The position numbers were made by a program, and so were the translations under genes. The notes beneath the pieces were generated by a model that saw only the letters and a list, made by a program, of their open reading frames with translations, had not been told where the DNA came from and did no database searches. Of a DNA stretch of 64,000 nt, positions 1-41,933 are shown in pieces; positions within the stretch are counted from its first letter, which is position 1; every line of letters starts with the position of its first letter. Origin of the DNA: Candidatus Nealsonbacteria bacterium (GTDB lineage Bacteria > Patescibacteriota > Minisyncoccia > Minisyncoccales > JANBVM01); assembly GCA_047456295.1 (NCBI GenBank), contig CP179887.1, forward strand, positions 431,159 to 495,158, given 5' to 3'.

Positions 1-336
1 TGGCTCCCAGGAAAATCCTTTATATTTATTACATCTCTTTTTACAATTTCTTTCCTTTAAGGGTTTACAGACAGCTATATTTTTCCTTGAATAATTCTGA
101 TAACATTTGATATCTTCTCTCTTTAGGGCTAAGATTGGATGTTCTGGTGTTATTTTTAAAGTTTTTAATTTTGAGATTCCTATCTCTAACATCTCTCCCT
201 GGTAATCCCTTTCAAAAACCTGTTTTGTTTCTCTAAATCTTCCTTGATGAGTTAGAACCTTTTCTTTGGTTTTAATTTTACTAATGGGTCGGGGTAAATA
301 ATTTTCACCGATAACTTTTGTATCTTTAGTCACACA
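1..336 (-). mobile_element. Intein, N-terminal part only (continues beyond window)
   Basis: Own translation after ...FAMNLI: CVTKDTKVIGENYLPRPISKIK...LKITPEHPILALK... This gives a block A-like C-V-T-x-D-T-x-V start (Cys codon 336..334) and a block B-like T-P-E-H. The host motif breaks exactly where the family normally continues C-A-A-G-T-G. Confidence 0.6.
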
Positions 337-726
337 AATTAGATTCATGGCAAAATCTACCGCAACCTTGTTTTCCAAGATAATAATCTTGGAGTCCTGC
401 CCGCCAATTTCAATTATTGTCTTTACATTAGGAATGAAAAAACAAGTTCCTTTGGCATGGGTCGTAATCTCGTTCTTAATTAAATCAGCCCCGGTAATTA
501 CCCCTGCTAAATGACGGGCTGATCCAGTAGTTCCCACTCCACCAATATCAACATTTATACTGTGGTTTTTAATGTGATTTTTTAACTCCCTTAATCCTTC
601 CTGAACAGCCTTAATAGGGTTTCCTTCTGTTCTGCGATAAAGGGAAAATAAAATCTGGTTTCTTTCATCAATTAAAACAAACTTGGTAGAAATAGAACCT
701 ACATCAATACCTAAATATGTCTTCAT
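1..726 (-). CDS. BcrA/BadF/HgdC-type ATPase (2-hydroxyacyl-CoA dehydratase activase-like), partial, intein-interrupted
   Basis: Not in the ORF track because it runs off the window. Own translation from ATG 726..724: MKTYLGIDVGSISTKFVLIDERNQ...GGVGTTGSARHLAG...TIIEIGGQDSKIIILENKVAVDFAMNLI, then intein sequence. ASKHA/BcrAD_BadFG-like phosphate-binding motifs. ATGA start/stop overlap with ORF 723..1796. Confidence 0.75.
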   Translation of the reverse strand, partial: MKTYLGIDVGSISTKFVLIDERNQILFSLYRRTEGNPIKAVQEGLRELKNHIKNHSINVDIGGVGTTGSARHLAGVITGADLIKNEITTHAKGTCFFIPNVKTIIEIGGQDSKIIILENKVAVDFAMNLICVTKDTKVIGENYLPRPISKIKTKEKVLTHQGRFRETKQVFERDYQGEMLEIGISKLKTLKITPEHPILALKREDIKCYQNYSRKNIAVCKPLKERNCKKRCNKYKGFSWEP

Positions 727-1796
727 GTTTTTTTATTTTTGAAATGATTTATTACTACATCTACAAAAGCTTCAATCCTAGTATTTATTCCGGCCTCAGC
801 CACCTGTTCGTCCAATGATAATGATAAAAATGGAATCCCGCTTTCTTGATGAATCTTTTCCAAGATAGGCCTCACAGTGACCTCCGGCATGCATCCAAAA
901 GGTAAAAGATGAACCACACCATTAAAATCTTTTTTCACATAATGAAGCATCTCATATATTGCGTCCCTGCCATGACCGCCCACCGTTGATTTTAAATAAG
1001 GATTTATCTTTCGTTGGATTAACCAATCCTTCCAGGGAAAAATCACTTTTTTAAGATGGTAACTAAGCTCCATCTCCCGGTGAACCTCCATTCCCTCATT
1101 GCCCAGTTTTTTTTCAACCTCAAAATTAATAGTGGAATCAGTAACCGTGTAGATTTCACCTATTAAAGCGACTTTAGGCAAAACCTTGTTTTTGTCAATC
1201 TTGATTCTGGAAAACCTTTTTAAAACCTCTTTTTTCAATTCCGAGAAATATTTTTCTTTATTCAATTCTTCAAGTTTTAAAAAGAACCAAAACAATAATT
1301 TGTCTGTTGTTCCTTTTTCCATTTCTCTCGGCCTATAGTATTGAGCCATTTTTTCAATCCTTTCAATGAGTATTAGTTTTTTAAAAAAGAATCTTATTGC
1401 TCTTAACATCTGCCAAAAGGAAGCTTTAGAGATCTCCTTTATTTTTGAATAGAGTTGTCTTGGTGAAACCTTAAGATTAACAAAGTTGATTTCCCAGCCA
1501 TTATCTTTAAGCACTTTTTCTTGAATCGCTCCATAATACCTCTGACGGCAAGAACCTCCAACATTCTCTGTCATAAAAATGGTATTGGCCCCCTTTCTCA
1601 AGGCCGGCATGTAATTGCCAATGGTTACCTTCATTGGAAAACAAAACATTTCAGGCGCCATTTTAGCTCCCTCTGCAATGGTTTTTGAATTTGTTTTCTC
1701 AGGAGGAATAACCTCCAAACCCACCCCTTCCAAAAGAGACTTAAAGGCAATGGTATAATTTCCCCATCCAGCAAAAGTAACAATTGGTTTTTCCAT
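723..1796 (-). CDS. Activase-associated dehydratase-like subunit (HgdB/DUF2229-like)
   Basis: 357-aa ORF, translationally coupled to the activase gene. Conserved-looking Cys-containing segments (PEMFCFPMKV, GGSCRQRYYG, LLPFGCMPE) resemble 2-hydroxyacyl-CoA dehydratase / YjiM-type partners, from memory. Confidence 0.5.
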   Translation of the reverse strand: MEKPIVTFAGWGNYTIAFKSLLEGVGLEVIPPEKTNSKTIAEGAKMAPEMFCFPMKVTIGNYMPALRKGANTIFMTENVGGSCRQRYYGAIQEKVLKDNGWEINFVNLKVSPRQLYSKIKEISKASFWQMLRAIRFFFKKLILIERIEKMAQYYRPREMEKGTTDKLLFWFFLKLEELNKEKYFSELKKEVLKRFSRIKIDKNKVLPKVALIGEIYTVTDSTINFEVEKKLGNEGMEVHREMELSYHLKKVIFPWKDWLIQRKINPYLKSTVGGHGRDAIYEMLHYVKKDFNGVVHLLPFGCMPEVTVRPILEKIHQESGIPFLSLSLDEQVAEAGINTRIEAFVDVVINHFKNKKT

Positions 1797-1809: not shown

Positions 1810-2709
1810 TTAATGGAGGGTATCTATAAAAGCTTCCAGCCTTGTCTGAAGACCTGACTCACCAGTATGTTCATCAAGTATTATGTATAAAAACGGGATT
1901 TTTCTCTTTTTAAACTCTTGTTCAACAAATTCCTTTATTACACCATCACAACCGCACTGAAAAGAAGATATTTCAATCCCTCCTACAATATCATATTTAA
2001 AGATTTCCTGAATTTTTTCAATTATTTCTTTACCAAATTCCCAGTGAAAATCAATTATGTCTGACTGTTCCGGTTTAATCTCCTTTTTAAAAGGAACAGG
2101 AACCTCATTTATCAATAAAGGCTGAGTCCCCAATCTCTCCAATTTCTCTTTTGTCCTTAGATTAACATAAACATCATAGAGATTGTAGGGGTGAGAAACC
2201 AAAACAATCTTTGGTTTTTTGGATAATATTTTTTTAAAAAACCTTTGTTTTTGTTTTTGTTTTTGTTTTTCTTCGTTTAAAAAAGCATCTGTTATAGCTT
2301 TTTGTATTTCTTTACTGTTTTTGTTCAGTTTCTTACCTAATTTAACAAGGGTCTTTTTAATCTTTTCTTTTCTTTCGTCAAAGGTTTCAGTTAAAATCGG
2401 AGTTTTAACCAATATCTTTGCCAAATCAGGTAGAGCAAAAAATTTAGGACAGTATTCTAACTTCTCATTATTTGCCTTTAACCGAGGTACAAAAATCAGA
2501 TCGCATTTCCCGTCCAGCCATAATAAGTGACCCCAGTAAACCTTGGTGGAAAAACAGGTTTCAGGGTCAGCTATCTTTACTCCCATTTCTACAATCTCTC
2601 TATTGGTTACAGGAGAAAATAAAACCTCAAAACCAAGACTTTTAAAAAACTCTTCCCAAAAATGAGTCCTTTTCCAATAGATTAAGGCTTTAGGAATACC
2701 AATAATCAT
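1810..2709 (-). CDS. Activase-associated dehydratase-like subunit (DUF2229-like)
   Basis: 299-aa ORF starting MIIGIPKALIYWKRTHFWEEFFKSLGFEVLFSP...ADPETCFSTKV, which is the N-terminal pattern of the CoA-enzyme-activase-associated domain. Same operon as 723..1796 and the activase. Confidence 0.5.
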   Translation of the reverse strand: MIIGIPKALIYWKRTHFWEEFFKSLGFEVLFSPVTNREIVEMGVKIADPETCFSTKVYWGHLLWLDGKCDLIFVPRLKANNEKLEYCPKFFALPDLAKILVKTPILTETFDERKEKIKKTLVKLGKKLNKNSKEIQKAITDAFLNEEKQKQKQKQRFFKKILSKKPKIVLVSHPYNLYDVYVNLRTKEKLERLGTQPLLINEVPVPFKKEIKPEQSDIIDFHWEFGKEIIEKIQEIFKYDIVGGIEISSFQCGCDGVIKEFVEQEFKKRKIPFLYIILDEHTGESGLQTRLEAFIDTLH

Positions 2710-10398: not shown

Positions 10399-13374
10399 TT
10401 ATTCTCCCTTAATGACGGCTAAAGGCACTAATCTTGCAACTTTTTTGGACAATCCAGCATTATGGACTACTTGTACCACATTATCAATATCTTTGTAAGC
10501 AATAGGGGCTTCCTCAGCAATTCCTCTTGGGCTCCAGCATTTAATGATAATTCCTTTTTGTTCCAATCTCTTTATCACTTCTTGTCCAGAAATTCTTCTT
10601 GTTGCCTCTCTTCTTGACATTGTCCTGCCAGCTCCATGATTTACTGTATACCAAGCCTCCTTAGATTTTTCTGTTCCTGCTAAAACATAAGAGGCAGTTC
10701 CCATTGACCCTGGAATCAAAACTGGTTGACCAACCCCTCGATATTTTTCTGGAATCTCGGGATGACCAGGAGGAAAAGCCCGGGTTGCTCCCTTCCGATG
10801 GACAATTAATTTCATTTTTTCTCCATTAACTTCGTGCTCTTCGATTTTAGCAATATTATGGGCAACATCATAAAGCAGCTTAAGATTCTCTTTTTCTCCC
10901 AATATCTTCTTCCAAACCTTTTTTATATAAAAAGCCATCATGTGTCTGTTCGCCCAAGCATAATTACATGCTGCACACATGGCCTTGAAAAATCTTTGAC
11001 CTTCTGGAGAGTTAAATGGTACACAGGCTAATTCTCTATCTGGCAGTCTTATTCCATATCTTGGCAAAGCTTGCATTACTACTCTTAAATAATCAGTACA
11101 ATTTTGATGTCCAAGACCCCTTGAACCACTATGAATCATTACTACTACTTGGTCTTTAAATAATCCAAAAGATTGAGCAACTTTCTCATCGAAAATCTCT
11201 TCTACTTTTTGTATTTCACAAAAATGATTGCCTGATCCGAGGGTCCCAACCTGGTTTCTCCCTCTATTCTTAGCTCTCTCAGAAACACAGGAAGCATCGG
11301 CTTGTTCCATTTTCCCCTTTTCTTCACAATTTTCAATATCTTCCTCCTCTCCGTAGCCCTGCCTTACTAATTCAGGCACTCCGCCCTCTAAAATTTTATT
11401 GACTTGATTGATTGAAAGCTTTATTTGCCTCCCCTTTCCCAATCCTGAAGGAATTTCTTTTTGGATTTCAGTAGCTAAATTTTCTAAACGAGCTTTTATT
11501 TCTTTTTCAGTGTGATTTGATTTTAATAATCTAACGCCGCAGTTTGAAACCACAAAATTATTAGCTACAAAATTATGATCTGGATGATTTACAGTAAAGT
11601 CGTAAACTAAACCTGCATAAGGAATCTTCTCAATTCTTTCTATTTTTTCCCAAACTAATCCCTGATTTTTATAAACGTGTTTTCTCTTGTATTCCTTAAA
11701 GGAAGGGAAGTTAAAAGCAATCCGAGGATTCCCGCGTTTCTTTTGGATTCCCCATCTATTTTCTTTAAAAAGAGAGTGGTAAAGGAATTGAGGAGGCGTA
11801 TATTTGTCACTATACTTTCTTATTAATTTTTTAAAATCGCCTTTCTTCTTATAGGCATTTCTTATTCCTTTTCTTGCTTGAGTTCTAAGAGTAACAACTT
11901 TTAATTTCCTTCTTAAGTAATTAGCTGCCAAACAAGCTTCTTTTTGTTTTCTTCGATTATATTCATACCCAATGGTCTCAAAAAGCTTAATGACATTCTC
12001 TGCATTTTCCTTTATCTGTAATCTAAAACCTGTTGTATTCCCTAATTTTCCCTTGTATCGATAGCCAGGCACCTCCTTAATTTGAGATGTCTGAATATTA
12101 AACTCTTTTAAGAGCTTAACGATGTCCTTTAAGAATAGCTTTGCATTTTCTTTCAATCTTTCCGACTTATTCATATTTAATGTGGGAGCATAAAAGTTGT
12201 ATTTATTCAGGGTCGATGGGGCTGAAAGCTCTGCTCCAAAAAAGGAAGCTAAAAACAATCTTTTTTGCCATAAAGGGCAATTAAAAATCCATTTCGGAAT
12301 TCGATAGGCCTGGTGAGCCTTTAATCCATAGGGAGTGCCTAAAGCTATTAAAAGAGAAGCTAAACTCGCTGAGCCATTTTTAATCACATATTCAGTTCTT
12401 GAAAATTCATAAGTTCTATAGAAAGTAGTGATTGAGTGATCCCTTTTTCTAGAATAAATCCGAGATGGTTTAAACCCTAATTTCGAAATATCTTTCTGAA
12501 TTTCTCTTAAATCTTCTGGATCTCCATAAAACTGAATTTGGGCATTTTTACTAAAACTTATTGATCCATCACCAAAAATATAGCCTATTATCCTTAAAAT
12601 AGACGGCAAAAAAGAGGAATTATAAGATAAAGGTAAAAGGTTTCGAGATTTCAGTTGGTTTAGAATTTGAGTAATTGCATGACCTGGCTCATTAATTCTT
12701 CCTAGTTTTACTAAAACTTTTTTTAGATGTTCTTCGTCTAAAAGTATCTTTTTAGACGATTCTTCGTATTTCACGCCCTTAAATGGATAAATTAAAACTT
12801 CGTCACGACTATTCAAAAACCTCATTTCTTTCATGCCTTCTTTGGTTTGTATTGGATGGTTTCCAGTAGCTTTAATTTTCTCTCCGGCTTCGGTAACAAT
12901 TTGATAAATGGTTGGATTATTATATCTTTTGAAAAAATGTATTATTGGAACATCGCTAATTTTTTTCTTTTCAAAATTTACAACTTTTACCTTTCTACTG
13001 TTCCAGGAATATCCAAGCTCTCTGATAGAAATGTAAGTTCCGTTTTCAAGTAAAACTTTACTGTCGGGAGGAAGGCAGTTCTCGTCGTAACCAACAAAAC
13101 CTGGGGAAATAATTCCTTCAGGAATTTTCATTGCACCCACACCACCAATAGGTGGCCCATAACCCGAGTGCAAATCAGGCATACCTACAGCATATTTTAC
13201 AATTCCAGGCAGAGTAGTTATATTAACTAACTGTTTTAGGGCATGGTTTTCAATATGGTCCAATATTTTTTCCGAAGCATAAATTCTAGCCGGAACCCTC
13301 ATGTCAGAACGAAAGCTTTTCGGGACTTCCCAAAGCCAATCTGATATTTTTTTGAAGTCTTGTTTTGATACCAT
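10399..13374 (-). CDS. rtcB: RNA ligase RtcB, interrupted by an intein
   Basis: Extein motifs MPDLHSGYG, GYDEN|CGVR (split), GSGNHF, HSGSRGLGH, NHGAGR. The joined exteins are about 479 aa. The ORF track starts at GTG 13428; ATG 13374 (MVSKQDFKKISDW) is likely. Confidence 0.9.
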   Translation of the reverse strand: MVSKQDFKKISDWLWEVPKSFRSDMRVPARIYASEKILDHIENHALKQLVNITTLPGIVKYAVGMPDLHSGYGPPIGGVGAMKIPEGIISPGFVGYDENCLPPDSKVLLENGTYISIRELGYSWNSRKVKVVNFEKKKISDVPIIHFFKRYNNPTIYQIVTEAGEKIKATGNHPIQTKEGMKEMRFLNSRDEVLIYPFKGVKYEESSKKILLDEEHLKKVLVKLGRINEPGHAITQILNQLKSRNLLPLSYNSSFLPSILRIIGYIFGDGSISFSKNAQIQFYGDPEDLREIQKDISKLGFKPSRIYSRKRDHSITTFYRTYEFSRTEYVIKNGSASLASLLIALGTPYGLKAHQAYRIPKWIFNCPLWQKRLFLASFFGAELSAPSTLNKYNFYAPTLNMNKSERLKENAKLFLKDIVKLLKEFNIQTSQIKEVPGYRYKGKLGNTTGFRLQIKENAENVIKLFETIGYEYNRRKQKEACLAANYLRRKLKVVTLRTQARKGIRNAYKKKGDFKKLIRKYSDKYTPPQFLYHSLFKENRWGIQKKRGNPRIAFNFPSFKEYKRKHVYKNQGLVWEKIERIEKIPYAGLVYDFTVNHPDHNFVANNFVVSNCGVRLLKSNHTEKEIKARLENLATEIQKEIPSGLGKGRQIKLSINQVNKILEGGVPELVRQGYGEEEDIENCEEKGKMEQADASCVSERAKNRGRNQVGTLGSGNHFCEIQKVEEIFDEKVAQSFGLFKDQVVVMIHSGSRGLGHQNCTDYLRVVMQALPRYGIRLPDRELACVPFNSPEGQRFFKAMCAACNYAWANRHMMAFYIKKVWKKILGEKENLKLLYDVAHNIAKIEEHEVNGEKMKLIVHRKGATRAFPPGHPEIPEKYRGVGQPVLIPGSMGTASYVLAGTEKSKEAWYTVNHGAGRTMSRREATRRISGQEVIKRLEQKGIIIKCWSPRGIAEEAPIAYKDIDNVVQVVHNAGLSKKVARLVPLAVIKGE
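11542..13077 (-). mobile_element. Intein with LAGLIDADG homing endonuclease, in RtcB
   Basis: 512 aa. Cys1 (codon 13077..13075) begins CLPPDSKVLLENG. Block B is ATGNHPI. LAGLIDADG-like motifs are IIGYIFGDGSI and ASFFGAELSAP. It ends FVVSN|C (Asn codon 11544..11542, +1 Cys 11541..11539). Confidence 0.9.
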
Positions 13375-38156: not shown

Positions 38157-41100
38157 TTAACCTGCTTCCTTGGCCTTTTTTATTCTTAGAACTTCTTCAG
38201 GGCTGGTGGTAATTATCTGGTCTTCGGTATAAGAAGCGACCACTTTCATTGCCACGTGCTTTTGTCCGGCAAAGAACATCCCCTCTCCTACCTCTGCTTC
38301 CAGCAATAAATACTTTTCTTCATCGGTTAGATTGAATGCTTTTTGGACAGCATCAATGGTGGCTGTCGACTGTTTCATTAAAACCTGCAAGGAAGAATTG
38401 GTAATGATTGGCTGTCCGTAATTGGATTTCATAAAGTCGTTAAGGTCCTGGGTAATGGTGGTTACTCCCAGCCAGTATTTTCTGGCTCTCTTGCAAATTC
38501 CAAAGAGAAAGGAAGCCCCATCTTCATTTTGCATTATCCACCAGGCTTCATCAACCACCAGGATTCTCTTTTTCAATTCTGACCTGACCTCGTTCCAGAT
38601 ATATCTCATAATAATAAACATTGCCATGGCCCTTAATTCATCTTCTATGTCCCTTATTCCAAAAACAACAAAGGGTTTATCCATTGAAATATTTGTGGGG
38701 TGATTGAAAAATTGAGCAAAGGTTCCTTTGGTGAACTTCCTCACCCTCCTGACCAATGATTCAGCCCCTTCCATTCCTTCTAAAACAGATTCAAGATCTT
38801 CCATTAAAGGTATTCTCTCTCTCCAGGTAGAGGGATCGGTCTCTGGGGTGATGTCTTTTGCAGCATAGGTTTCAGCTAAAGCCCGATCAATAATGGCATC
38901 TTCTTCTGGGGTCAATCCTCCCAGCATAATCCTTAAAAGTCCCACCAGATTAATAATGTTTGACCTTAACACGTCTTCTGGTTTTTCATCTTCCCTTGGT
39001 GTGGGTAGGTCAAAAGGATTAATATGACTCTGGGAAGCCAGAGAAATATTAAAGAAAGAACCTCCCACTGCATCAGACAGGTGTTTATATTCGTTTTCAG
39101 GGTCTAATACAATTACTTCCACCCCTGTCATCAAAGACCTTAAAATATCTAACTTGATGGCATAAGAGTTGTGAACAAACATTCCTGCAGTGCCTGCTAA
39201 AAACACTTCATTGTCAACAGTTAAATCATAAACATATTTATTGTTTTTGTTTCTAATTTTCTTAATTTTAACAATTGGATCCCAGAAAAGATCAGAGTTA
39301 GCTAATATTTTCAACTGAGCCAATTTTTCTTCAACCTGAGGGATTTTATTTACTAAAACATCTTGATAGTTTTGCCAGATAAATTGAGCAGATTTTTGAA
39401 TTGTTTTATAGCTTGTATTACCTTCAGGTTTTGTTACTAAAGCTGACCGGAGAGAGCTATTATAATTTTTCATTGGAATAGCCATTTCTTTAAAACCCAA
39501 ATGAATTGTTTCTTTAATCTTTTTTAAAGAGTAGGATTGGCCATTTACTGTTTCAATTAACCTAAAGGCGTTACAGCAAAAAGGATTAACTTCTCTGTTT
39601 TTAACAACCTGCCAGCTATGACCTAAAGCTTGCCATAAATCTCTATTTAATTCTTTATCATTCTTTCCTAAATTGATTATTGTGCTTAATTCTGGAAGTT
39701 CGGTTAAAACCCTAAAGGTAGAAGTTAAATCTTCAAAATACTGGATTCTTTGTTCAATTTTATTTATTACTTTTAACAGATGTTGAGGAGAAGGGCGGCG
39801 AACACCTCTTTTCCACTCAGAGATTTCTGTTATTCCATAAAGCTGAGGACCAAAAAGATCATGAATTTCTTTAAAAATAGTTTCTAATGTTGGAACAATG
39901 TCAACATTAGTATTACCTGTTTTTTTAATAATTTCAGAAAGCTGATCCCTTTTTCTTTTTGAAATAAAATTAATATCTTGTGCAAACTTCCTGAGATTAT
40001 CCTGGCCAGAAATAGTAAGCTTCCAGTAAGTCTTTTTGTGTTTCCAGCTAGGAATTTTCTTTTTTGTTTTTGAGGTTCTTGCAATGATTCCAAAAAAATA
40101 CAAAAGATAGCTAATTTCTGAAATTAACCTTTTGGATTTAGAGACAGCTGAAATATATGCATTAGCTTCTGTTCCTCCATCTCCTTCAAAATAAGCTGAT
40201 AGGTATTGGGCAATTTTTTGTTTTTCTAAATTAAATATGAATGGCCAGACTTTTTTTTGCTTTGATTTACCTTTTCCTCCTAAAGCCTTTACTATCTCTA
40301 TAAACACCCGAGAACTAGTAATTATGCCTCTATTATCATAATAAAAAGGAATCTTTAATTCAGAAAAAGAGGAATCTATTTCTTTAAGCACCTCTTTATC
40401 TTCATTACTTATAATTATGACATCTTCCCTAATAGTTCCTTCAGCTGTAATAAGGCCAGCTATTTTTAAAAATCCCGATGTAATCTGAAAATCAATATTT
40501 AAAGAATATTGCTTTTTCCCGTTTTTTGAAACAACCTTTAGATTTTTAAATTTTGGGTCATTAGGTTTAATCTTAAGATAATCTAAAATCTTCCAGAAAT
40601 ATTGAATAGGAATACGACGGCCAACTCTATATTTATAAAGATAACGATGGAGATTTTTATCTAAATTAGCCTTCTTTAAGGCTTCATAATTCTCTTCAAT
40701 CAGATATTCTCCACCAGCCACATAAATCCCTTTTGAATATCTAAGCAATTCTAAAAGATTTAAAGATTTTAAAGGAGAATCAGTTTCAGAAACCTGCCGG
40801 GGAACAGGAACAAATTCACCCTCTTTTATTTCAGAACCCTTGGCAGTCTTTATTTTTCCATTTTTTAAAACCAGCATATTATGATCACTTGTTGTAGTAA
40901 TTTTTCTGCCGCTTTGGGTAGTAAATTTATAAAAAACATTTGGTGCTTTTTTCCTGGCAGCTACTGTCACTTCTGACCACTTTGCTTTTAAGTTTTTATC
41001 AAAACTGTAAACTTTAATTTTAGGATCAATTACTCCTTCTAATTCTTCGTCAATTTTAGTTATTCCCTGTTTTTTAATTAATCCTTCAACCAAAGACCCT

Positions 41101-41933
41101 ATTTTTGTTAATTGAATTTCATTTCCATTCTTTATTAAGACTGGTTCAGATCCTAAAATTGACTTTCCTGAACCCGCCTTTCCGAATAAAACCTCATTGG
41201 CATTCTCTAAACCAAAACGGTCAAATAGAATAAGGGAATTGTTGTGTCTGTTGATACCATATAAAATCCCGTCATTAGAACTCAAATCAAAAGAAACAAA
41301 AGGAAAGGTTGAAGAAAGGGGGCCGGTATTCATTGAGGTATGGACCTGGAGCTGGTCCAAACCATAAGGAGCAGTGGAATTAAAACCTTCTCTTTGCTGG
41401 TAAAGGGAGGGTTTAATATAAATCAGTCTGGATTCCAGAATCGACCTCAGATTGGTTTCTATATCCCTTAATTCTTTAGGGGTGTTTCCATAGACGGTTA
41501 AATAAATGCCAAGCTTAAACATCCTTTCCTGGGCAGTTTGTAAGCTGTCCCTCAAAGATTCAAGGTCTTGATGGGCAACCTCTAGGACTGGATCCCTGAT
41601 CAAGCCTTTTTCTTGTCTTTCATTGATTTCAGCTATGACTTCTGCCACCTTTTTCCTTAATTTCTTTAAAATCATTCCGGTTTCAACAGGATGAATGTGT
41701 AATCCAATATTCATTGGGGTGTCCAGATTAATGATCGGAGAAAGCCAACCTGTGCTTATGTATCTGGGATAAGAGAAGATAAAAAAGGACCTAGACAATC
41801 TTTTGCCAAATTCCAAACGGTCCGGCCTCAAGGAAGTGAGAGAAGAAGGCGCAATAATGTCTTTTATCCCTATTGCCGGAGCTTCAAATATTTGTTCAGG
41901 TTTTTCTTTCTTTTTAAAAAAAGGAAATTTCAT
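38157..41933 (-). CDS. virB4: VirB4/TrbE-type T4SS ATPase, interrupted by an intein
   Basis: Walker A FGKAGSGK|S split by the intein, Walker B ILVVDEAWW, downstream TQDLNDF. The joined exteins are 593 aa. Confidence 0.85.
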   Translation of the reverse strand: MKFPFFKKKEKPEQIFEAPAIGIKDIIAPSSLTSLRPDRLEFGKRLSRSFFIFSYPRYISTGWLSPIINLDTPMNIGLHIHPVETGMILKKLRKKVAEVIAEINERQEKGLIRDPVLEVAHQDLESLRDSLQTAQERMFKLGIYLTVYGNTPKELRDIETNLRSILESRLIYIKPSLYQQREGFNSTAPYGLDQLQVHTSMNTGPLSSTFPFVSFDLSSNDGILYGINRHNNSLILFDRFGLENANEVLFGKAGSGKSILGSEPVLIKNGNEIQLTKIGSLVEGLIKKQGITKIDEELEGVIDPKIKVYSFDKNLKAKWSEVTVAARKKAPNVFYKFTTQSGRKITTTSDHNMLVLKNGKIKTAKGSEIKEGEFVPVPRQVSETDSPLKSLNLLELLRYSKGIYVAGGEYLIEENYEALKKANLDKNLHRYLYKYRVGRRIPIQYFWKILDYLKIKPNDPKFKNLKVVSKNGKKQYSLNIDFQITSGFLKIAGLITAEGTIREDVIIISNEDKEVLKEIDSSFSELKIPFYYDNRGIITSSRVFIEIVKALGGKGKSKQKKVWPFIFNLEKQKIAQYLSAYFEGDGGTEANAYISAVSKSKRLISEISYLLYFFGIIARTSKTKKKIPSWKHKKTYWKLTISGQDNLRKFAQDINFISKRKRDQLSEIIKKTGNTNVDIVPTLETIFKEIHDLFGPQLYGITEISEWKRGVRRPSPQHLLKVINKIEQRIQYFEDLTSTFRVLTELPELSTIINLGKNDKELNRDLWQALGHSWQVVKNREVNPFCCNAFRLIETVNGQSYSLKKIKETIHLGFKEMAIPMKNYNSSLRSALVTKPEGNTSYKTIQKSAQFIWQNYQDVLVNKIPQVEEKLAQLKILANSDLFWDPIVKIKKIRNKNNKYVYDLTVDNEVFLAGTAGMFVHNSYAIKLDILRSLMTGVEVIVLDPENEYKHLSDAVGGSFFNISLASQSHINPFDLPTPREDEKPEDVLRSNIINLVGLLRIMLGGLTPEEDAIIDRALAETYAAKDITPETDPSTWRERIPLMEDLESVLEGMEGAESLVRRVRKFTKGTFAQFFNHPTNISMDKPFVVFGIRDIEDELRAMAMFIIMRYIWNEVRSELKKRILVVDEAWWIMQNEDGASFLFGICKRARKYWLGVTTITQDLNDFMKSNYGQPIITNSSLQVLMKQSTATIDAVQKAFNLTDEEKYLLLEAEVGEGMFFAGQKHVAMKVVASYTEDQIITTSPEEVLRIKKAKEAG
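39168..41162 (-). mobile_element. Intein with LAGLIDADG homing endonuclease, in the VirB4 P-loop
   Basis: 665 aa. Ser1 (codon 41162..41160) begins SILGSEPVLIKNG. Block B is TTTSDHNML. LAGLIDADG-like motifs are LKIAGLITAEGTI and LSAYFEGDGG. It ends GMFVHN|S (Asn 39170..39168, +1 Ser 39167..39165). Confidence 0.85.

Follow-up and report, generated by a model that had tools for sequence, protein, structure and literature searches.

Here we describe a class-1 intein, very probably a genuine one, that interrupts a gene for an iron-sulfur activase at the left-hand end of a 64,000-nucleotide stretch of the genome of an ultra-small Candidatus Nealsonbacteria bacterium (contig CP179887.1, positions 431,159 to 495,158; hereafter the window, to which all coordinates refer). 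The host gene, read on the minus strand from the ATG at position 726 to the first base (an uninterrupted 242 codons), is assigned by its sequence to the acyl-CoA-dehydratase-activase-type (‘archerase’) ASKHA ATPases, of which the N-terminal half is visible in the window; the intein begins directly after residue 130 and continues to the window edge. The gene was missed by the open reading frame (ORF) track because its frame runs off the end of the source sequence, and frames of this kind are skipped by the ORF listing. It was instead noticed in a first-pass annotation, which proposed an open minus-strand frame from ATG 726 encoding 130 residues of an activase that end in VDFAMNLI and are followed by intein-like blocks, a proposal that the translation bears out. 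The features on which the description relies are the following:

337..726, minus strand: N-extein, residues 1-130, ending in ...VDFAMNLI (delimited by PF01869, TIGR00241 and intein-free alleles)
1..336, minus strand: first 112 residues (131-242) of the class-1 intein (TIGR01445, identity to orthologues and invariant columns)
334..336, minus strand: codon (TGT) of intein Cys1, the predicted N-terminal splice nucleophile (alignments to intein-free alleles end at 333-335)
130..159, minus strand: intein block B, LKITPEHPIL, with T193-x-x-H196 (T193-P-E-H196) (translation)
31..105, minus strand: four-cysteine (Cys4) motif after block B, C208-x11-C220-x7-C228-x3-C232 (same-site intein comparison)

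Host gene, visible intein and its same-site relatives

Residues 1-130 scored 74.5 bits against the Pfam model BcrAD_BadFG (PF01869, cutoff 31.5), a family-model match that identifies the ASKHA ATPase core in the window fragment, and aligned to positions 3-125 (i.e. the first half) of the NCBIfam profile TIGR00241 (‘acyl-CoA dehydratase activase’). The window fragment alone reached 85.8 bits against this profile and fell below the cutoff of 125.4 because only half a protein is present, while the intein-free allele P0003 attained 207.8 bits. The closest extein matches were found in Patescibacteria of the Candidate Phyla Radiation (CPR), namely Nealsonbacteria, Paceibacterales and Parcubacteria, and the G+C content of the window is 35%.

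From residue 131 onwards (nt 336-1) the translation reads CVTKDTKVIGENYLP...LKITPEHPIL..., which places the splice junction between nt 337 and nt 336. The two canonical blocks, A and B, that the first-pass annotation had recognised after VDFAMNLI were both recovered: Cys131 stands directly after the uninterrupted host sequence ...VDFAMNLI, and the TPEH of block B comprises an invariant H196 and a nearly invariant T193 (across 46 orthologues). Furthermore, residues 131-199 scored 24.9 bits against NCBIfam TIGR01445 (‘intein N-terminal splicing region’), barely over its cutoff of 24.5. The visible 112 residues share 75-76% identity (tblastn) with the intein of the orthologue L002 and 61% with that of L003 (both described below), and depart from the 46 full-length orthologues at none of their invariant columns. 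To the left of base 1, the intein is expected to continue for some 305 residues, followed by a C-extein of 196.

Full-length orthologues in matching operon context were recovered from a Paceibacterales metagenome-assembled genome (MAG; L002, 738 residues) and from a MAG labelled Saccharibacteria (L003, 741 residues), both of which read ...DFAMNLI|CLTKDTKV...(417-418 residues)...AVHN|CAAGTGSFLDAQ... The C-terminal junction HN|CAAGTG, anticipated at first pass, is thereby present in the orthologues (...ITAVHN|CAAGTG in L002 and ...LSAVHN|CAAGTG in L003), which carry block G in full. In L002 and L003, respectively, the scores were 47.9 and 49.1 bits for Pfam Intein_splicing (cutoff 35.8) and 28.4 and 27.0 bits for LAGLIDADG_3 (PF14528, cutoff 22.5), and NCBIfam TIGR01443 (intein_Cterm) reached 26.6 bits on the orthologues (cutoff 15.6). 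From these orthologues, and from the intactness of the visible part, we infer a like C-terminal junction for the window copy. The NCBI gene models of two intein-bearing activases, P0121 (L002 9620-11836; 612 residues, as against 738 for the full L002 ORF) and P0132 (610 residues), begin within the gene, omit most of the N-extein and carry no intein flag.

Two protein searches recovered 50 clusters of inteins at this same site (clusters being counted, here and below, as database proteins at 90% identity), of which 44 are full-length (389-465 residues) and 6 are mini-inteins (140-184 residues) that lack the endonuclease. All 50 clusters retain the terminal Asn, and 27 of them also have the penultimate His. 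Among the full-length relatives, the first LAGLIDADG pattern (mostly LLGYYLAEG) was found in 34 of 44 and the second (mostly ILKGFFRGDG) in 29 of 44, in both cases with the acidic residue kept; these motifs are not visible in the window, and the orthologues carry them as LLGYYLAEG and ILKGFFRGDG. In an AlphaFold model of the orthologue P0123 (mean predicted local distance difference test, pLDDT, 82.8), the insert matched the TliVMA intein (7QSU; template modelling score, TM, 0.70), PI-SceI and PI-PfuI, the model also matched I-DmoI, and the two extein halves, when combined, matched HadI (4EHT, TM 0.90) and HgdC (1HUX, TM 0.88).

Empty alleles and the cluster-ligand insertion site

Four proteins of 326 residues (P0003-P0006), 97-98% identical to residues 1-130, continue as ...VDFAMNLI-CAAGTGSFLDAQ...; these intein-free, same-species alleles read ...VDFAMNLI|CAAGTGSFLD across the site, in agreement with the C-A-A-G-T-G continuation that the first-pass annotation had ascribed to the family. 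At the DNA level, five samples independent of one another (Logan DRR463592, SRR26080958, SRR26080961 and DRR310882; JGI 3300029812) yielded intein-free contigs that align to the window at 97.8-98.6% identity, over lengths of up to 5.3 kb. All five alignments end at window positions 333-335, i.e. past the junction Cys codon, which is the only codon common to both forms beyond the junction and which encodes the Cys of CAAGTG in the empty alleles (the empty site in L007 reads ...GATTTTGCCATGAATCTAATT|TGTGCTGCAGGCACAGGTTC...). Removal of the insert leaves a contiguous and conserved host protein, as the five empty alleles (AMNLI-CAAGTG) testify. The occupied form was also recovered outside the window: a Logan contig from DRR463593 (DRR463593_4901, L001) is 100% identical to it across the junction, as far as position 65. 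The sibling run DRR463592 carries the intein-free allele, in contrast to the intein-bearing strain of DRR463593, and the assembly break at window 65, together with this empty allele, suggests strain heterogeneity at the locus. Judged by these alignments, the insertion is precise and polymorphic within one species-level population, and the presence of both allele types at ~98% identity would fit homing.

The +1 residue (the Cys of CAAGTG, P0003 Cys131) aligns with Cys127 of HgdC (PDB 1HUX), and the Cys of SRCTVF (SxCTVF, P0003 Cys170) with Cys166, so that both cysteines are found in P0003, the window showing the site of the first only. We take Cys127 and Cys166 to be the two [4Fe-4S] ligands that each HgdC monomer contributes, as Locher and co-workers are said to have described in 2001. 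The first-pass idea that the +1 Cys is an iron-sulfur ligand is in keeping with the numbering in this alignment. The [4Fe-4S] cluster of ‘archerase’ ATPases lies at the interface of the dimer (PMC7317905).

A second insertion site was found in the CPR activases P0230, P0232, P0235, P0236, P0253 and P0256, which carry a different intein and have CAAGTG intact. Their junctions (...SSR|CLTED...CHN|CTIFAESD) lie directly ahead of the Cys in SR|CT(I/V)F, the Cys166 equivalent; by alignment, both [4Fe-4S]-ligand Cys positions serve as intein +1 residues in CPR activases. In addition, CPR activases possess a C-terminal extension of ~60 residues with five conserved Cys (CTSFxCxGCPNxCEV...RCGKW; P0003 residues ~265-326), which is absent from HgdC and HadI and may constitute a further metal site.

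If the splicing steps follow the well-established class-1 mechanism, from which they are taken, the whole precursor (N-extein, intein and C-extein) would be translated, the thioester formed by Cys1 would be attacked by the +1 Cys (the cluster ligand equivalent to HgdC Cys127), and, upon cyclisation of the terminal Asn, the exteins would be ligated into a normal 326-residue activase. With the ASKHA fold split by the insert and a cluster ligand serving as the +1 Cys, the unspliced activase should be non-functional, and dimerisation around the cluster would be possible only after splicing. The spliced product would be a homodimer with one [4Fe-4S] cluster between the subunits, delivering low-potential electrons to its partner. 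The LAGLIDADG endonuclease, in turn, would cut the intein-free allele at ‘AATCTAATT|TGTGCTGCAGG’, and repair would copy the intein in; such homing would explain the presence/absence polymorphism within a single species-level population.

Alternative explanations and the four-cysteine motif

Several observations weigh against the interpretation of this element as an intact, splicing and homing intein. On the window fragment alone, the Pfam Intein_splicing and the Vint/Hint models remain sub-threshold; moreover, the endonuclease domain, blocks F and G, the terminal Asn and the C-extein of this copy are unseen, and it could accordingly be truncated, degenerate or split. A scan of genome contigs and metagenome contigs for the downstream half of the window gene returned only orthologues, and a P0003-like C-extein fragment was not found by protein searches with either the L002 intein or a chimera of the L002 intein C-part and the P0003 C-extein as query. 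The independent Logan contig (L001) also ends inside the intein, 64 nt short of the window edge. Among the relatives, 23 of 50 have another residue in place of the penultimate His, and some copies may splice poorly. With respect to homing, the density of single-nucleotide polymorphisms between the window and the empty alleles is flat (~2%) up to the junction; recent homing is thus not directly shown, the N-extein side being free of any visible co-conversion tract, and a precise loss of the intein would produce the same presence/absence polymorphism.

The first-pass annotation had named a frameshift or an assembly chimera near position 336 as an outcome that would overturn it, the activase having then been joined artificially to an intein fragment (for instance one belonging to either of the other inteins of this genome, described below). 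The placement of the feature at the window edge, and a Logan contig whose end inside the intein hints at assembly difficulty, could be read in this sense; the switch at nt 336/337 is nevertheless no such artefact to judge from that very contig, which is identical across the junction. The same junction, frame and residue also recur in L002, L003, P0001, P0002 and ~50 clusters from unrelated samples, and the two other inteins of the window are dissimilar (tblastn with the L002 intein matched nt 1-336 only), all of which makes a chimera or frameshift extremely improbable. An actual but decaying or inactive remnant (through pseudogenisation of the activase, or through loss of the endonuclease or of splicing competence) is a more biological alternative, as the relatives span all stages of decay: they include the six mini-inteins without endonuclease, the copies with a replaced penultimate His and P0161, which is devoid of Cys4 and LAGLIDADG motifs alike, and in the window copy the C-terminal two thirds are unseen. 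However, the 112 visible residues are free of stops and retain Cys1, TxxH and all columns invariant in the 46 orthologues; the window copy possesses the Cys4 module, seen only in full-length, endonuclease-bearing copies; and the operon genes upstream are intact, with translational coupling. We therefore consider decay quite unlikely, and retain the reading of a genuine class-1 intein.

The Cys4 motif was present in 43 of the 44 full-length same-site inteins and in none of the 6 mini-inteins, the full-length exception being P0161, and lies in a region of the AlphaFold orthologue model with pLDDT <50. Its loss together with the endonuclease suggests, at the level of sequence comparison, a metal-stabilised (perhaps Zn) DNA-recognition element. 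One may alternatively envisage a conditional switch, whereby Cys1, the +1 ligand Cys and Cys4 would render splicing and activase maturation redox- or metal-dependent. The use of both ligand cysteines as intein +1 residues (site a in the window intein; site b, the Cys166 equivalent, in P0232 and others) and the near-universal conservation of Cys4 in the full-length copies speak for it, as does the precedent of Cys1/Cys+1 disulfide ‘redox traps’, which are known in the Pyrococcus abyssi MoaA and PolII inteins. On the other hand, the disappearance of Cys4 along with the endonuclease in mini-inteins is a better fit to DNA recognition than to regulation, empty alleles occur commonly within the species (which implies a host without need of the intein), and inteins are generally located at conserved catalytic residues, so that the location follows a general rule. 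A switch of this kind is, in our estimation, unlikely.

Operon partners, further inteins and known systems

The activase is the third gene of a tightly packed minus-strand operon, its ATG sharing bases with the stop codon of the preceding gene (ATGA, 726-723). The two genes that precede it are:

1810..2709, minus strand: first operon gene, a 299-residue DUF2229 protein (PF09989, 149.5 bits) with a weak C-terminal HGD-D match
723..1796, minus strand: second operon gene, a 357-residue DUF2229/HGD-D protein (PF09989, 49.1 bits; PF06050, 29.1 bits)

The identical three-gene order was found in L002, L003, L007 and L008; in L007, DUF498 and radical-SAM genes come after the activase. The 357-residue protein is a putative electron-accepting subunit, and both partners are presumed to be the electron acceptors of the activase. 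Orthologues of the partner gene in other genomes (P0174 and P0196, for example) carry an intein as well (LLPAM|CVPPE...N|CMPETTVRP), which is located ahead of a conserved Cys and shares 35-44% identity with the activase intein; at the equivalent site, Cys302 (nt 893-891), the partner gene in the window is intein-free. Protein pairs such as P0123/P0195 and P0125/P0200 share the size of their longest contig, and in some genomes the activase and partner genes both appear to be intein-invaded. BcrAD_BadFG, DUF2229 and HGD-D are also combined in PlsA, an anaerobic plasmalogen synthase, and in Ger, which reduces glycerol esters (PMC13159169), and the set of Pfam domains in PlsA/PlsR and Ger is the same as that of the window operon, which by analogy might make ether lipids in this CPR bacterium. 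The architectures differ: PlsA and Ger are large fusions (BBDHDDH), whereas here we encounter three separate small genes and a single activase domain.

Two further inteins are encoded in the window, and their Pfam scores confirm the first-pass count of three in 64 kb. The first, of ~500 residues, lies in an RtcB RNA ligase (10402-13374, minus strand; Intein_splicing 72.2 bits; junctions ...YDEN|CLPPDSKV and ...FVVSN|CGVRLL, without a penultimate His), and the second, a large one, in a TraG/VirB4-like P-loop ATPase of 1258 residues (38160-41933, minus strand; Intein_splicing 75.2 bits, LAGLIDADG_3 58.8 bits; C-terminal junction ...FVHN|S). That the three are recent copies of one another was ruled out by the tblastn search with the L002 intein mentioned above. 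Distant relatives of the activase intein (26-31% identity) were observed in further hosts connected with iron-sulfur chemistry, namely SufB, NifU_N/IscU-like and radical-SAM proteins (P0217, P0233, P0237, P0238, P0224 and P0225).

In comparison with known systems, the element is a textbook class-1 intein and a fairly ordinary example of a well-known kind. The P0123 model matched the solved class-1 intein-endonucleases TliVMA (7QSU/7QSS), PI-SceI (1VDE), PI-PfuI (1DQ3) and PI-TkoII (2CW7) with E-values of 1e-18 to 1e-12, and shares with them a Hint fold split by a two-motif LAGLIDADG domain, Cys1, TxxH, the terminal Asn and a +1 Cys. It differs from them in sequence (12-18% identity) and in host protein, as well as in the many relatives that are devoid of the penultimate His; furthermore, a 25-residue four-Cys motif after block B is not known from the TliVMA, PI-SceI, PI-PfuI or PI-TkoII inteins. 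The exteins belong to the same family as the archerase activators HgdC (1HUX), HadI (4EHT), BcrAD/MbdQP (9GAI) and DCCP-R (7YYL) (phmmer E-values 1e-37 to 1e-41), with both ligand Cys conserved and HGD-D-type partner genes adjacent. None of the characterised activators contains an intein, and the CPR proteins are set apart from them by the Cys-rich C-terminal extension (~60 residues) and by partners that are DUF2229 proteins in place of HgdAB/BcrBC.

Inteins at metal- or cluster-related residues occur elsewhere, in mycobacterial SufB and in Pyrococcus RtcB and MoaA. The activase intein resembles these in that an essential Cys acts as +1 residue, by which the host would be inactive until spliced (the RtcB of the window, ...VVSN|CGV, being itself an example), and differs in that the +1 residue here would ligate an inter-subunit [4Fe-4S] cluster and in that both ligand Cys as well as the partner subunit have been invaded. 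The first-pass annotation had called the host unusual. A literature search (intein combined with activase names, and with CPR or Patescibacteria) found no account of this host, and no activase host was found in the main text of the intein survey of Novikova et al. (2016); the claim is nevertheless right only in part, and automatic annotation at JGI already labels such activase proteins as intein-containing.

The interest of the locus resides in the targeting of both ligand Cys and of the partner, in the occupied and empty alleles that are at hand, and in the conserved Cys4 module. With regard to the CPR archerase intein family as a whole (at both ligand Cys and at the partner Cys), it is conceivable, if improbable, that it operates as a maturation switch which senses redox state or metal via Cys4, Cys1 and Cys+1; were this true, an electron-activating ATPase would be assembled only under suitable (anoxic, metal-replete) conditions. 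At a practical level, the intein causes breaks in assemblies and leads gene prediction astray (as in the NCBI models that start inside the gene), which is of relevance to the annotation of CPR genomes, and public samples contain occupied as well as empty alleles (~98% identical), which provide a ready target sequence for homing assays. Taken together, the above observations add the archerases, which are ATP-driven and electron-activating, to the host families of inteins and offer a clean case of a putative metal-cluster ligand as intein +1 nucleophile, while the invasion of both ligand Cys and of the partner subunit may serve as a test bed for whether such inteins are purely parasitic or gate the maturation of the enzyme.

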